From sequence record PZ242158.1: a stretch of DNA of 64,000 nucleotides; one strand, given 5' to 3'. The notes under the pieces were generated by a model. It saw only the letters and a program-made list of their open reading frames with translations, was not told where the DNA came from and did no database searches. The position numbers and the translations under genes are program-made. This DNA comes from a phage. Numbering within the stretch: position 1 is the stretch's first letter; the number at the start of each line of letters is the position of its first letter. Shown here in pieces: positions 2,880 to 48,446 of the stretch.

Positions 2880-5303
2880 ATGAGCATGTGGTCGTTCGAT
2901 TTTGAGTCATCCGGTTTGCTGGAAGACCCAGATCTTTATTATCACTGCGGCCTGTTTAAAGAGCTGAATAAGAACCGTTTTATGCTGTTCCTTCCTCTGA
3001 ATGACCGCACACACTACTCCGAGGAGGATATAGAGAAGGCCAAGAACTTTATTCTGGCAAAGAAAACTCTTTATAAGGATTTTGAAGTTCGCATAGCAGA
3101 TTTTTCGGAGTTGGAAGGTTGGCTTACAGGAAATTCCGACTGGTCACCAACAGCTTTGAACTGCCATAACTGCTACAGTTATGACTTTATGCTGATGGAG
3201 AGATTATCCGGTATTCATTTTGATATGTTCCGTGATCCTAAATGCATGGGGACTATCAACGACCACCAGGTTAACCTGTTTGATACGTTGGCTATGAGCC
3301 GAATCTTGTGGCCTGATCGCCCTTTACCAAAAGGTTGTCCGGACGCTGTATTCAACCCGGTTACTAAGAAAATGCAACCTGTTGGTCCTCACGGCCTTAT
3401 GGCATGGGGCTACGCCCTTGGTAACCAGAAAGTTCAAATTGATGACTGGCGCGATCTTCCGCTGTGGAAATATGTGGATCGTGTGTTCGAGGACGTTATC
3501 ATCCAGGAGTTGCTCTGGAAAGAGTTGGTAGCGGAATCAAAAGGTGTATTCTACGGCAAATCTGACATGCAGAACTTTATGTATGACCCTGCCAAAGAGA
3601 AGCCTAAAGGATTCAAGAAGATTACCTGGAAGAATGCATTACGCCGAGGCATGCTGCAGCATTTCCTGATGGAGCTGCAGGCTCGACAGGGTGTGTATTT
3701 CGACATAGATGGGGCTATTGCTTTACGTGACCGCTGCGATGCGTGGATGAAAGAGATCGCTGATCGTGTTGAACCACAACTTCCTTTAAAAGAGTTATCA
3801 ATGTCTCAGCGGCCTAAGTTCCCTGAAAAGCCGTTTAACCAGGATGGGACAATCTCCAATAATGGTTGGAAATGGTTAAAAGACAAGCTTGGCTACCCTG
3901 TGGACATGAGTGCTTTAGAATTCAAAGCTCCTCCTAAGCGAGCATTTACCTCCACAGGAGATGTCAGTAAGATGGGGATAAAATGGTGTGAAGAGATGGG
4001 CTGTAAAGACCCTGACAAGATGGCGGATTTCTTGAGGGGCTATATCAAGGGCACCTCCACACCACAACCTTTACCTAAAGAGCTAATGGATCAGGCAATA
4101 AGTGATCTACAGCAGAAGCGAATGCCTGACTGCAAGATACCTATGAAAATCAGTAATCAGGACGATATTAAGCGATACCTGATCAGTGCTGGTTGGCTTC
4201 CGACAATGTGGAGAACTAAGGATGTAACTAAAGACAGCAAGAAGAAAGCTCTACCTGATGCAGATGTTGATGCACGAGTGTATGCATATATGGACGAGCT
4301 TTTAGAGTCAGAGTATTGTGACCTAATTATCAACTTCTGGAACAAAACTGATGCTAAGTTCCAGACAACCGTGCACAAGTTCCGAAGCTTTCCTAACTCC
4401 GAAAGGATTAAAAAGGAAGTATTCGGGAAAATACGTAGAAAAGCTAGGGCACTTATTACTTCTCCGCAACTGAAAGATACGTTTGGACACCTATGCCCGA
4501 ATCTTGAAAAATTGAACGGAGAGATGGCTAAAGATATCGTCTTGTGGTTATCATTGCGAAACCGCAGATCGGTCCTTGATCCAATCAAGGAGGATAAGGT
4601 TGATACTGGTCTTCTTAATCACCCACGTTTGAAGATTGACCATAAGCTTCCTGCTAAAAGTTCTGGATTAACAAACACTTCCCGACAGAAACACAGTATT
4701 TGTGCAAACATGCCTAAACCATCTCCTAAAGTGGTTATGGGTAAAGAGATGCGTAGTCTGTGGGGTGTTCCTCCAGGATACTTTGAGATCGGTATTGACG
4801 GGTCCAACTTAGAGCAGCTTATCGGGGCTTGGGGTGCCTTTGAGTTCGACAACGGCCTGTATTACGATGTTGTAAGTAACGGGGACGCACACCAAAACAA
4901 TGCTGAGGCATATACAAAAGTAGCAGGTAGAGAGGTGTCTCGTAACGACGGTAAACCTATCACGTATGGGGTTATGTATGGGGCACAAAAAGATAAAGTT
5001 GCAGATATGCTGGACATCTCTCCAGAGTTGGGACAAAGGGTAATCGATGCACTCTGGGATGCCAACCCTGGTCTTAAGGGGCGTAAAGAAGATCTGGAGA
5101 AATTCTGGGAAGCAACGGGTAAGAAGTTTATCTACTCTTTTGATGGTCATGCTATCTGGACCCGATCTAAACACTCTTTACTTAATGCATACCAACAAAA
5201 TGGCGGCGCATCGTTGTGTGACTTAGTTGGGATACTCATGCACCATCAAATGGTGAAGCGTGGGTGGTACGATGAAGGTGTTCGTCGTATTATCTATTAC
5301 CAT
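2880..5303 (+). CDS. DNA polymerase, family A, exon 1
   Basis: AAGGAG RBS; exo motifs FDFESSG and HNCYSYD; motif B KPITYGVMYG; ORF stops one codon after the His where motif C (HDE) is expected. Confidence 0.8.
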
Positions 5304-6145
5304 AAATAACATTGTGGCTTCGTGCAGTGATGCACGTCGAAAACCTCTTTAATTGACGGGAAGGCTAAGTTGACTTTTACACCTAAACATGGTAAAAGCT
5401 CAATATGCTAATCCGCAGCGAAGACTAAAGGGGTGTAGTTAAAATGGCTAGATCAGTTGATTATCACGGATATACCGTGTTTGATGATGGAACAATACCT
5501 TTATCGAAACGTGATCATACAACAATGTTTTGTTTTGATAATGGTCGAGGTTACCTTTGCGTAACCATGTTCATCGAGGGGAAGCAGTGCACAAAAGGTG
5601 TCCACCACTTGGTTGCTGAATGCTTTGTATCAAACCCTGATCCTGAAAGGCTCACATGGGTGAACCATAAGGACGGAAACAAATACAACAATGCATACTG
5701 GAACCTTGAATGGACCACCCCTGGTGGAAATATCAAACACGCTTATGATAATGACCTCAGAGTAAGGCCAGTCGGTGAGTATAATGCCAACGCTGTACTG
5801 ACCGAGGATGAGGTAACGGAGATTTGCGAACTGTTACAGAGTGGTCTACGACAATGCGAGATTAGGGATCTTGGGTATCCTTATGAGACGGTCAGAGCCA
5901 TAAAGCAAAGAAGACAGTGGAAACATATCTCTAAAAACTACACCTGGTAGTAACGTTCAGAGACTATCGAAAGCATAGCGCCAACATAAATTGGTGCGAA
6001 GAAGCGAGTAGAGTAGGCCAGCAAGTGCGGTCGAAATGGGAGGTGCCTTGGTAACAAGGTAGTGAGATAGTCCGATCCATACAGGAAACTGTATGGCTGT
6101 GCACGTAATGGTGCGGGGTAGCTTAACGACCTACCTGAACTATTG
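5304..6145 (+). mobile_element. Group I intron in DNA polymerase gene, carrying an HNH homing endonuclease ORF
   Basis: 5' exon ends in U, intron ends in G; P-like AATTGACGGGAAGG (~5350), Q-like AATCCGCAGC (~5410), R-like GTTCAGAGACTA (~5955), S-like GAGATAGTCC (~6064); boundaries approximate. Confidence 0.7.
5444..5950 (+). CDS. HNH homing endonuclease (intron-encoded)
   Basis: HNH signature VNHKDGNKYNNAYWNLEW; C-terminal helix-turn-helix-like module; lies between Q and R elements of the intron. Confidence 0.8.
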   Translation: MARSVDYHGYTVFDDGTIPLSKRDHTTMFCFDNGRGYLCVTMFIEGKQCTKGVHHLVAECFVSNPDPERLTWVNHKDGNKYNNAYWNLEWTTPGGNIKHAYDNDLRVRPVGEYNANAVLTEDEVTEICELLQSGLRQCEIRDLGYPYETVRAIKQRRQWKHISKNYTW

Positions 6146-6499
6146 GATGAGTACCAACTTCAGGTCCCTGACACACCTAAGTATAAGACTGTGTACACCT
6201 TCGACACAATTGAAGAATTGGAAGCATTTAAGGCAGAGCAGGAGGCCAAACTTCATGTGTTCGACGGTCATAAGTACAAAAAGGCACGCAAGGATGAAAA
6301 CGGAAACGAAGTGGTTGACAGAGACGGAAACACGGTGTACGATCCTATCCTGAACGATGACGGAAAGCTTGAACTTATCTGGAGCCCTGTGGGTGAAATG
6401 GTGGTGCATTGCTTCTGGCAAGCTTCTAAAATGATGGGAGTCCCGTTCCAGATCACAGGTGAATACTTGTGTGGTCGTAACTGGGGTGATTGTCACTAA
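6146..6499 (+). CDS. DNA polymerase, family A, exon 2
   Basis: Begins DEYQLQV, completing motif C as YYH|DEY; ends GRNWGDCH, the canonical Pol A C-terminus; no RBS of its own; ORF-track start is a TTG at 6143. Confidence 0.7.
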   Translation, partial: DEYQLQVPDTPKYKTVYTFDTIEELEAFKAEQEAKLHVFDGHKYKKARKDENGNEVVDRDGNTVYDPILNDDGKLELIWSPVGEMVVHCFWQASKMMGVPFQITGEYLCGRNWGDCH

Positions 6500-45035: not shown

Positions 45036-46028
45036 CTACAGGTTATTACCTGTCCTATGTTTACAACAAATCTCTCTATGCGCTGATTCTACCATACTGA
45101 ACACTTCAGGTCTGTAGTTAAAGAATTCGGTACTACCATCAAATTTTACAGGGAAGTTTATTTTATATTTACTGAAGGCTTTGTGCATAGATTTTTCTAC
45201 AGCCAGCATGTTTTCAGTTGATCCTTCCAACGTTTTCACTATGTGAAGATCGCGGATACCAGCTCCAGATCTTTGTGCACTTTTAAGTATCTGGTCTCTT
45301 CGCTTACTTTCATTATGACTGACCCCTATTTTCATAAATGTAGGTACTTCTGGATCATCAACCATAATGTAGAGTTTTCCGTTATCGTGTGATAAAAATC
45401 CTGTTTTAGCGCATCTAGGGCAAGCATGTCCCTGCTTAAGACTGCTTGGTACGGTTAACCATGTGTGGCTACAACCTTTACAGCAGCACAGGACTTTCTT
45501 ATCCCACCCAATAATTTCTTCCAATATCTCAACATAAGGATTTCTACTTCTTATGGACTCAACCCACTTTTCGTGTGGTGATGTTTTACTTTGTGAGATT
45601 CTTGACCCCTTGCAAACTGGACAACCTCTTTTCAAATTTATATGGTTATCAGGTGTCTGTGTAAAGTGATTTCCACAAGTGTTGCAGATTATTTCTACCC
45701 TGTCTTTGCAAGTCTTGTAGTATACGAGAGAGTAGTCATATTTATCTCCATGGATTTCTTTGGCCCTTTCTACAAATTTAAGACCTTTATTACACTTTGC
45801 AGCACGAGAAAGTTTTGCACAAAAAGGACAACCACGACCTTGCAAGTGTTTACAAGGTGCTTGCATAAAATCCCCATGGATTTGGCAGGTAATGCAAACC
45901 TTCGCATAGCAATCCACGTACACTGTTTTCGTGTAATCGTATTTATAACCGTGAATGATTTTCGCCTTCTCTATAAACTCTTCTGTTGATAATTTAGCCA
46001 TTTCTTGTTTCCTAACTTCCCTAAACAT
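45036..46028 (-). CDS. homing-endonuclease-like protein (repeated zinc-binding modules plus T5orf172/GIY-YIG-like C-terminal domain)
   Basis: Three repeats of HG-KYDYS...C..C...G.F...P..H...GCP.C; C-terminal GKLYIM...KIGVS block. Confidence 0.5.
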   Translation of the reverse strand: MFREVRKQEMAKLSTEEFIEKAKIIHGYKYDYTKTVYVDCYAKVCITCQIHGDFMQAPCKHLQGRGCPFCAKLSRAAKCNKGLKFVERAKEIHGDKYDYSLVYYKTCKDRVEIICNTCGNHFTQTPDNHINLKRGCPVCKGSRISQSKTSPHEKWVESIRSRNPYVEILEEIIGWDKKVLCCCKGCSHTWLTVPSSLKQGHACPRCAKTGFLSHDNGKLYIMVDDPEVPTFMKIGVSHNESKRRDQILKSAQRSGAGIRDLHIVKTLEGSTENMLAVEKSMHKAFSKYKINFPVKFDGSTEFFNYRPEVFSMVESAHREICCKHRTGNNL

Positions 46029-46065: not shown

Positions 46066-47328
46066 TCAGCAACCACAACTTCCGTAGTGCTTAACTCGCT
46101 CGATAACTTCCGCTTGCTTACCTTTATTGTAAGGACGGGAGTTAGGACTGGAAAGATATCCAGACACTCTTCGGATCACTGAGATATATTGTTCATCGTG
46201 GCATCCGCACGCAGGGCAGCAGAACCCTTTAGCTGTTGCACTGAACTCACCAGAGAAACCACACTTGAGACATTTATCCACAGGTTGGTTAATACCAAAA
46301 TACATAATATGTTTATACCCGAAGTCAACAAGAGCCTCTAAAGCATCCAGGTTGTTTTTCAGGTTAGGTGTCTCTACGTATCCAATGTTGCCACCAGAGG
46401 AGATCATAGCAAAACCTTCCTCATACTCCCACTTATCAAAAGGAGAGCTATTTATCCACACTGGCTGATGGAAACTGTTGGTGAGATATTCATGCTCGTG
46501 CTTCAACACTTCCGGGTATTCACGATCCAGACAGGTTGCAGCTTTATAGCATAGACTCTCAGAAGGAGTGCCGTACAAGCTAAATGCTAGTCTACTTTCC
46601 TTCTTGTATCGCTCACAAGCATCTCTCATGTGCTGAAGGATTCCAAGAGCTAAAGCCTTGTCACCCTCTCTGCCCAAAATCTGACAGGTTTCATACACAC
46701 CAATATACCCAATACTGATGGAAGCGTACCCGTCATAGAAGAGTTTATCAATACTCTCTTCAGGATCCAGGCGAGCAAGAGCGCCTTCACACCACATGAT
46801 GGGGTTCTGCCCTGCCTTTGTTCCTTTTAGACGGTTAACCCTTACAAGGTGAGCCTCATATGCAAGATCCAAGTATTCGTCAAGAACTGCAAAGAAATCA
46901 ACACCTTCCGTCTTAGCTTTTGCCGCAATCATTGGCAGGTTAAGGCTAACAACGCCTAAGTTAAATCTGCCAAGGTATTTCTCCTCGCCTGTTTCCAAGT
47001 CATTGTATTTGCTAAGAAAACTCCTGCAACCCATGCTAGTTACTTTGCCATCTGTCGAGCCTGTCACTTTTCTATTTAGTGGTACAGATACGAAGTCAGG
47101 ATAGATACGTTCTGCACAGCATTCCAGAGCTAATCGTTTCAAATCATAGTTAGGATCCCCAGGGTTCATGTTGACACCCTCTTCCAGGAAGAACAGCACT
47201 TTAGGGAACACAGGTGTGATACGTTCTTCACCAAGACCCATTTTGTGGACTTTCAAGTAATTTTTGGTAATCATTCTACCAAAGACCGAAGTGTCCAAAC
47301 CTAAACTTAATGTGATAAAAGGGGTTTG
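46066..47328 (-). CDS. nrdD: anaerobic ribonucleoside-triphosphate reductase, exon 2
   Basis: Begins QTPFITLSLGL (aligns to E. coli NrdD QTPFVTFGFGL); C-terminal zinc site CLKCGF...CPACGC and glycyl-radical region RRVSGYLS. Confidence 0.8.
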   Translation of the reverse strand, partial: QTPFITLSLGLDTSVFGRMITKNYLKVHKMGLGEERITPVFPKVLFFLEEGVNMNPGDPNYDLKRLALECCAERIYPDFVSVPLNRKVTGSTDGKVTSMGCRSFLSKYNDLETGEEKYLGRFNLGVVSLNLPMIAAKAKTEGVDFFAVLDEYLDLAYEAHLVRVNRLKGTKAGQNPIMWCEGALARLDPEESIDKLFYDGYASISIGYIGVYETCQILGREGDKALALGILQHMRDACERYKKESRLAFSLYGTPSESLCYKAATCLDREYPEVLKHEHEYLTNSFHQPVWINSSPFDKWEYEEGFAMISSGGNIGYVETPNLKNNLDALEALVDFGYKHIMYFGINQPVDKCLKCGFSGEFSATAKGFCCPACGCHDEQYISVIRRVSGYLSSPNSRPYNKGKQAEVIERVKHYGSCGC

Positions 47329-47585
47329 CGGTCCCCACCCTTATGTTTCCACAAGGCCAGACTATCTCTTGCCTGAAATCACACCGTGTGATTCTTAATC
47401 AGACCCCTGCGTTTCGGAATCTTCCATAATCCCTACACCAAAAGGTTAGTCGTTACAACCGCCTCACTCCTTGTGAAGCTAGTCACGGGATTGGCATAGC
47501 TTTCGCCTTAGCGTTCCCCGTTAGCCAGCGATCAGCTGACCCCTCATACTGAGGTTAGCAGAGTTTTAAAACGGCCAGTTTGTTA
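47329..47585 (-). other. ORF-less group I intron in nrdD (~257 nt)
   Basis: Exon 1 ends ...VNG then in-frame TAA; 5' exon ends in U, intron ends in G; guide GCCGUU pairs with exon AACGGU; P/Q/R/S-like elements present; boundaries approximate. Confidence 0.65.
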
Positions 47586-48446
47586 ACCGTTTACCGAGGT
47601 TAGTGTGTTGATCTGATAAAGCAACGTCTGCATGCTGTCAAACACGTCTTTATCTGTCATTTGCATTGCAACAGTTTCAGCATCCGGCAACCAATGTTCC
47701 TGGCAAAATTTAAGGTTCTTCTCATAGGTTGCTTCAGCATACTGTGCCAGATAATGATCAATATGGCTCATAGTCTGACCACCATATTGAGCACTAGCTA
47801 CCGCGCTAGAGATTTGACTAAGGATTGTTGTTGCAACCCCTATTGACTTCGGCTTACTGACATGGGCGTTGCCAATGTTGAATCCGTTTTCCAACATATC
47901 TGGATAATTTACCAAACAACAGTTTGTTAACGGACTGATCAAGTAGTCAAGATCATGCACATGGATGAAGCCTTTATTGTGCTCTTCTGAAACACGGTCT
48001 GGCAGGATCTGTGTTGATGCAAGGTGTTTGCTAAGGATGCCTGCAAGCAGGTCACGATGAGTGTGTACATGATTAGTGGGCTTATTTGCGTTTTCTTTTG
48101 TAAATTCATCACAAGTTCGATCCAAGAAGCCACTAATATCTGCAAGCAGTTTTCCACCTGCCTCTCTGTTATTATCTCTTGTCTGTCTATACTGGATGTA
48201 TTCTCTGGCTGCACATTTTAAACCCATATCCATAAGAGCATCTTCAACAAGGATATGGATATTTTTTACAGAGATCGTGCACTGGTCGGTTGGTAGATTG
48301 TTAGCAACAACTTCATTAACCGCGCAGGCGATCCGGTAAGCTTCTTCTTCAGTATGTCCAGACTCAAGTAAGGCGGACTCTGCCGCCTTGATCACCTTAA
48401 TTCCGTTATAGAACTCTTCTCTACCGTCCCGTTTTACAACTTTCAC
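47586..48446 (-). CDS. nrdD: anaerobic ribonucleoside-triphosphate reductase, exon 1
   Basis: ATP-cone-like N-terminus MKVVKRDGREEFY; ends ...NTLTSVNG where E. coli NrdD continues ANGQTPF. Confidence 0.8.

Follow-up and report, generated by a model that had tools for sequence, protein, structure and literature searches.

A predicted ORF-less group I intron interrupts nrdD in an rV5-like Escherichia coli phage

The DNA analysed here, a 64,000-nt window of sequence record PZ242158.1, derives from a Vequintavirus (rV5-like) phage of E. coli. Over 2.5 kb around the insert described below, the window shares 99.6% identity with Escherichia phage nom (MN850646), and ∼120 other Vequintavirus (rV5-like) genomes match the same 2.5-kb stretch with 92 to 98% identity. 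The genes of the locus lie on the minus strand in the order nrdA, nrdB, glutaredoxin, nrdD, a 330-aa ORF and nrdG, the genes for class Ia NrdAB thus preceding nrdD. The free-standing 330-aa ORF between nrdD and nrdG (45036 to 46028, minus strand) contains T5orf172/MUG113 nuclease-type and DUF4379 zinc-finger domains and is polymorphic, being absent from rV5 and HeinrichReichert; it is probably a homing endonuclease, in keeping with a preliminary description of this DNA, which had listed an adjacent homing-endonuclease-like gene. About 20 records named "Campylobacter phage" (GenBank MG0656xx, host Campylobacter jejuni) are 94 to 97% identical to the E. coli rV5-like locus, which suggests that they are mislabelled or contaminant genomes.

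The preliminary description, made from the sequence alone, had found nrdD in two ORFs ∼260 nt apart, and the gap is exactly 257 nt. The gene is laid out as follows:

47586 to 48446, minus strand: nrdD exon 1, with a GTG start and an ATP-cone N terminus (ORF list, spliced translation; colinear with PDB 9d3x and T4 NrdD 1h78)
47329 to 47585, minus strand: predicted ORF-less group I intron of 257 nt, with UAA at its start and a terminal G at 47329 (full-length RF00028 match, intron-less alleles, fold z-score of −3.35)
46066 to 47328, minus strand: nrdD exon 2, beginning QTPFITLSLGL (ORF list, spliced translation, NrdD alignment)

The exon ends read as previously reported. Exon 1 finishes with ...NTLTSVNG, its last codon being GGT, and TAA follows directly at 47585 to 47583; exon 2 opens at 47328 with CAA ACC CCT TTT, encoding QTPF. 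No ATG or GTG is present at the junction, and the earliest in-frame start codon of exon 2 is a TTG located 10 codons in. Joining the exons in silico removes the insert exactly and in frame, yielding a 2,124-nt CDS for a 707-aa NrdD. This spliced protein aligns to PDB 9d3x from residue 1 and matches T4 NrdD (PDB 1h78) with an E value of 2e-167, the alignment being ungapped over NG/QTPF (NTLTSVNGQTPFITLSLG versus NTLFSSNGQTPFVTITFG), so that the NrdD match earlier proposed across the junction holds. Of the 2812 phage records in which NrdD was matched, 2678 are unbroken over the junction peptide. The GTG start at 48446 overlaps the glutaredoxin stop codon, yields the N-terminal ATP-cone (MKVVKRDGREEFY...) and agrees with both the rV5 RefSeq annotation and the residue-1 alignment to PDB 9d3x. 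In the BASEL records and some others, the nrdD start is placed 71 codons later at a downstream ATG, and the ATP-cone is dropped.

We also compared the locus with intron-less nrdD alleles of related phages, a check that the preliminary description had proposed. The uninterrupted rV5 nrdD is a single 2,124-nt CDS, equal to the spliced length in the window. In rV5 and JohannBauhin, both intron-less, the gene reads ...AACGGG/CAAAC..., compared to ...AACGGT/(257 nt)/CAAAC... in the window. Because both alleles run on without a break at this nucleotide, the boundaries at 47585 and 47329 are set independently of any RNA model. The final base of exon 1 is the U at 47586 and the final base of the insert is the G at 47329, precisely the two nucleotides that had been singled out at the ends of the 5′ exon and the intron. 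Thus, the insert ends in an omega G and its excision restores the frame. The last exon base is U in intron-bearing alleles and G in intron-less alleles.

In the exon flanks (47500 to 47700, minus strand), differences between the window and the intron-less alleles cluster within ∼25 nt on either side of the junction (ACACTAACCTCGGTAAACGGT versus ACGTTAACTTCTGTCAACGGG and CAAACCCCTTTTATCACA versus CAAACTCCATTCATAACA) and leave the encoded residues unchanged. Identity to rV5 nrdD is 81% beside the junction and 84 to 100% in the other 100-nt blocks. In the HEG-type intron allele, the flanks are mostly of the intron-less type. The flank divergence would fit co-conversion, or selection acting on P1 or on the target sequences of an endonuclease, as read from these alleles.

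A scan of the whole window against Rfam at gathering thresholds returned no match. With permissive filters, RF00028 (Intron_gpI) matched 47595 to 47339 on the minus strand over model positions 1 to 253, with a score of 29.3 bits and E values of 1.8e-5 (local scan) and 1.7e-3 (whole window). The covariance-model search that had been suggested therefore gave a full-length match, but one that scores under the curated gathering threshold of 50 bits. For calibration, the T4 nrdD intron scored 105.3 bits and the HEG-containing introns of relatives scored 27.7 to 32.9 bits. As the latter score similarly low, the Vequintavirus intron set is distant from the Rfam seed, and the shortfall reflects this distance together with peripheral helices that are extra or missing, rather than a lack of the core.

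The predicted fold has a z-score of −3.35 (none of 200 shuffles was as stable), and nearly all of its helices appear in the unconstrained minimum free-energy (MFE) structure. Core motifs of the P, Q, R and S type, which had previously been noted as P/Q/R/S-like elements, are present as AACGGGGAAC, AAUCCCGU, GUUGUAACGACUA and AAGAGAUAGUC, and the core pairings P3 to P8 and the P7/P3 pseudoknot were all located. The pairings were then scored in six variants (four ORF-less and two HEG-type) from which P7.1, P7.2 and P8 had been excised. Of the cells scored for the proposed helices, 98.1% are paired, compared to 30 to 48% when the partners are slid, in a set whose six sequences represent about two lineages and are those from which the structure was read. 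Two-sided changes were found in P3 (G:C to C:G, in a HEG-type variant), in P9 (U:A to C:G) and in P6a, and the second peripheral hairpin (hairpin B) shows A:U to G:C or G:U. A pattern scan of IMG/VR for homologs of the core yielded one further variant of the lineage (L009) and an unrelated canonical IA2 intron (L010); the covariation thus rests on few lineages, and the support that it lends is real but thin. On the intron strand, the ORF list contains no ORF of at least 40 aa within 47329 to 47585, and the insert lacks the intron-encoded homing endonuclease of a mobile group I intron. The exact in-frame excision, the unbroken intron-less alleles, the full core with its full-length Rfam match, the compensatory changes and the lack of an ORF support the assignment of the insert as a putative ORF-less group I intron interrupting nrdD, which is how the preliminary description had read it.

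The predicted helices of the 257-nt intron are listed in order from its 5′ end, with the evidence for each in parentheses:

47584 to 47591, minus strand: 5′ strand of P1, composed of exon AACGGU and intron UA (all 8 pairs conserved across six variants; folds as a hairpin in the precursor MFE)
47570 to 47577, minus strand: 3′ strand of P1, the internal guide sequence UGGCCGUU, pairing with AACGGU/UA
47558 to 47563, minus strand: 5′ strand of P3, CUCUGC, followed by UAA as in T4 nrdD (UCUGCCUAA); pairs with 47405 to 47410 (MFE, T4 alignment)
47524 to 47554, minus strand: two peripheral hairpins between P3 and P4 (MFE; kept in variants), provisionally P3.1 (47542 to 47554, minus strand) and P3.2 (47524 to 47540, minus strand)
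47457 to 47521, minus strand: P4-P5, with a GAAA loop, and the P6/P6a domain (Rfam, MFE, variants)
47447 to 47451, minus strand: 5′ strand of P7, GACUA (Rfam, variants)
47416 to 47446, minus strand: P7.1 and P7.2 hairpins (MFE), followed by GAAAC at 47411 to 47415
47405 to 47410, minus strand: 3′ strand of P3, GCAGGG (variants)
47371 to 47404, minus strand: P8 hairpin (MFE), the loop of which houses a 177-aa HNH endonuclease ORF in relatives
47360 to 47370, minus strand: J8/7, AAGAGA, and 3′ strand of P7, UAGUC (Rfam, variants)
47339 to 47356, minus strand: P9 hairpin with a GAAA loop (MFE; compensatory U:A to C:G)
3′ of P9, minus strand: two-base P9.0, then the terminal G

In P1, the guide GCCGUU pairs with exon AACGGU as had been proposed, and the 5′ splice site falls at a U·G wobble formed by U47586 and the G at intron position 11. 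P7.1 and P7.2 follow P7 and precede the 3′ strand of P3, an arrangement by which Michel and Westhof reportedly defined subgroup IA in 1990. The canonical P2 and short J3/4 of the T4-type, IA2-like form of this subgroup are absent. Specifically, P1 and P3 are separated by UUAAAA alone, two hairpins stand between P3-UAA and P4, and the guide shows no obvious P10 pairing with exon 2. When the 32 nt of the two hairpins are left out, AAACUCUGCUAA joined to AACGGGGAAC aligns with T4 AAAUCUGCCUAAAACGGGAAAC, and P3.1 is among the optional group I pairings (PMC3873408). We therefore treat the missing P2 and the two J3/4 hairpins as peripheral variation and not as a new topology. Rfam places the 5′ strand of P3 at UCGCUGGC, and we rejected this placement, as these bases make up the 3′ side of a local hairpin that is conserved; the CUCUGC/GCAGGG pairing was preferred for its full pairing, its covariation and its match to the T4 UCUGCC-UAA motif.

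By established group I chemistry, splicing of this RNA would proceed in two steps. The sequence permits P1 to form between exon AACGGU and guide GCCGUU with the wobble pair at the splice site, and an exogenous guanosine bound in P7 would attack after U47586. The freed 3′-OH of exon 1 would then attack after the terminal G (47329) and join ...GGU to CAA..., giving the predicted ligated junction ...GTAAACGGT/CAAACCCC... and one mRNA for the 707-aa NrdD. On unspliced RNA, the in-frame UAA at intron positions 1 to 3 would halt ribosomes at the intron edge. As the intron has no endonuclease gene, it would not home autonomously, and its spread would depend on vertical inheritance or ordinary recombination. 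In this reading, the 257-nt intron is a sister lineage of a 797-nt intron that occupies the same site and encodes an I-HmuI-like HNH endonuclease. Taken whole, a group I intron that splices as predicted here is very probably the correct explanation, and the points that we count against it are the sub-threshold Rfam score, the lack of P2, J3/4 hairpins that are atypical for a T4-type IA2 intron, covariation from few lineages and the lack of an obvious P10.

The same site was examined in other Vequintaviruses. The ORF-less intron is present with at least 99% identity in 14 phage-collection records; for example, HeinrichReichert (MZ501073), AlexBoehm, RudolfGeigy, nom (MN850646) and Shigella phage CM1 carry the same 257-nt intron at the same site with 99 to 100% identity. 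About 28 records contain a same-site version whose first 141 nt are ∼87% identical to the window intron, and most of the remaining Vequintavirus records are intron-less at NG/QTPF. Three states thus occur at this site within one genus: empty, occupied by an ORF-less intron and occupied by an HNH-bearing intron. The HNH-encoding form, found in FFH2, FV3, slur16, WalterGehring and JEP1, is 797 nt long and shares P1 to P7 and the J8/7-P9 end with the window intron. Its 177-aa I-HmuI-like HNH ORF lies at intron positions 225 to 758, in the P8 loop, and has a match to HNH_3 and a weaker one to the I-HmuI NUMOD-like domain. The 797-nt intron differs from the window version in its larger P7.1 and P7.2, its unrelated P8 and its exon flanks. 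Because P7.1, P7.2 and P8 are unalignable between the two versions, the short form is no simple deletion of the long form, and we rejected a recent origin of the 257-nt intron by loss of the HEG. By their sequences, the two introns are sister lineages or mosaics.

We weighed a more elaborate account of the unusual periphery, in which the ORF-less intron would be an independent IA lineage that has lost P2 and gained P3.1/P3.2-type hairpins in J3/4, with these hairpins either replacing the P2 tertiary contact or making splicing dependent on conditions or on a protein. This account is unlikely. Were splicing condition- or protein-dependent, the intron would gate production of the anaerobic reductase instead of being a neutral passenger.

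It is also very unlikely that the insert is a degenerate, non-splicing intron relic and nrdD a pseudogene, tolerated since class III RNR is dispensable in aerobic growth. The sub-threshold Rfam score, the missing P2, the atypical J3/4 region and the lack of an endonuclease in the insert are what such a relic might show, and with class Ia NrdAB encoded just upstream and nrdD dispensable aerobically, a non-splicing form could persist for some time. However, the core helices are intact, with 98% of cells paired across the variants and compensatory changes; both splice-site nucleotides are retained; both exons are open from end to end and ∼93 to 100% identical to the intact rV5 nrdD over their full extent, with no frameshifts; and the ORF-less form is at least 99% conserved in the 14 isolates, which are independent. 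The low score itself loses force, as the HEG-containing introns of relatives score equally low against Rfam.

RNR genes that are split and yet work without splicing have been documented in phages (PMC3653736, PMC7344957), and NrdA of Aeromonas phage Aeh1 has been reported as a split gene whose fragments assemble after translation. If nrdD were a true split gene of this kind, its two ORFs would be translated separately, the fragments would assemble post-translationally and the spacer would stay in the RNA. This is very improbable here: translation of exon 2 from its first start, the TTG 10 codons in, would lose the conserved QTPFITLSLG; the spacer contains a full group I core with the correct splice-site bases; and the break lies inside a highly conserved motif and not at a domain boundary. 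Scarcely credible, too, is mobilisation of the intron in trans by the adjacent T5orf172-type nuclease (45036 to 46028) through cutting of intron-less nrdD, akin to the "collaborative homing" reportedly proposed for a cyanophage psbA intron; the T5orf172/MUG113 and zinc-finger ORF does lie directly downstream of nrdD and is annotated in WalterGehring as a putative homing endonuclease, but it occurs here in only three database genomes (nom, WalterGehring and Mangalyan), two of which have the HEG-containing intron, and the other 13 genomes with the ORF-less intron lack it, such that we rejected this mechanism for want of co-occurrence.

The group I intron reading, which we prefer, invites comparison with T4, whose nrdD had been cited as a precedent. 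The parallel holds for the gene and for the intron class, the T4 nrdD (sunY) intron being group IA in RefSeq and encoding I-TevII. It does not extend to the insertion site: the T4 intron lies at QAYE/YEVNTL, ∼10 codons upstream of the window site, and is a separate insertion. The tblastn match of a T4-like phage begins at query residue 56. The two introns have in common UCUGC-UAA, AACGGGxAAC, AAUCCCGU, ACGACUA, P7.1/P7.2, GAAAC-P3′ and AAGAxAUAGUCU; moreover, the order P7-P7.1-P7.2-GAAAC-P3′-P8-J8/7 is that of the T4 nrdD intron, and the GUAGGG...GAAAC motifs are alike. The T4 intron spans 1,033 nt, and the I-TevII gene, a GIY-YIG ORF, lies downstream of its core, whereas the window intron is without an ORF, and both the T4 intron and the IMG/VR intron L010 possess P2 and a 3-nt J3/4, neither of which is found in the window intron.

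A second comparison is provided by Fusobacterium phage Fnu1 (NC_055035; L014, 1065 to 2497), in which an insert interrupts nrdD at the identical codon boundary, just before the Q of QTPF. At its 3′ end, the Fnu1 insert resembles the window intron in having P7- and P9-like motifs and a final G. Unlike it, the Fnu1 insert is ∼1.4 kb long and contains a GIY-YIG endonuclease, and its sequence and endonuclease family are unrelated to those of the Vequintavirus introns; it gave no Rfam match at E < 0.1. From these sequences, the NG/QTPF boundary seems to have been targeted by introns repeatedly in phages that are unrelated.

In some relatives, nrdD is interrupted by a further group I intron, which is ∼760 nt in length, has an HNH endonuclease annotated within it and scores 32.9 bits in Rfam. 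Its site, which is empty in the window, corresponds to 47028/47029 (minus strand) and divides the conserved MGCRSF motif between G and C, immediately 5′ of the codon for the conserved cysteine. The site is occupied in 241Ecol014PP and in JEP1, and the nrdD of JEP1 carries both introns. The locus illustrates competition of introns for the most conserved nrdD codons, at NG/QTPF, at MG/CRSF, at the T4 site 10 codons away and in Fnu1.

Escherichia phage V18 (NC_041937) shows the flank haplotypes of both intron-bearing nrdD alleles without the introns. Its nrdD lacks 2 nt precisely at junction 1, has 2 nt too many at junction 2, where the sequence also diverges locally, and carries one further single-base deletion; the record annotates no nrdD CDS, and its genome measures only 129 kb. 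Given the scars at both intron sites and the 129-kb genome, we did not accept V18 as a natural intron-less allele with intron-type flanks. The region is probably a reference-guided assembly artefact, which is the simplest reading; imprecise intron loss is less likely.

The intron is already known at the level of annotation, as in the BASEL records the nrdD CDS is joined from two pieces, with exactly 257 nt taken out. Consistent with this, the 2,168-nt nrdD span of HeinrichReichert minus 257 nt equals the 1,911-nt CDS of the intron-less JohannBauhin. According to the BASEL paper, comparative genomics served to identify the intron boundaries (PMC8594841). The nom, bov10K2 and SophiaRose records list two separate nrdD fragments with no intron annotated. 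The rV5 genome paper reports introns in the terminase gene only, consistent with rV5 being intron-less in nrdD. Our literature search found no description of RNA structure or splicing assay for the Vequintavirus nrdD intron. By the features that can be read from it, the insert is a typical phage group I intron, predicted to splice, with a slightly unusual periphery, and the current understanding of group I introns is unchanged by it. Its value is for annotation: in many rV5-like records, two nrdD fragments stand for what is predicted to be a single spliced gene, and in some the chosen start codon omits the ATP-cone.

Elsewhere in the window, at 5294 to 6095 on the plus strand, lies a second group I intron candidate, the pol intron of the preliminary description, which the RF00028 search recovered with 40.5 bits (E = 7e-7), below the gathering threshold. 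This candidate separates two parts of a family A DNA polymerase gene, in a region with ORFs at 2880 to 5309, 5444 to 5950 and 6143 to 6499, and a 168-aa ORF inside it matches HNH_3 weakly.
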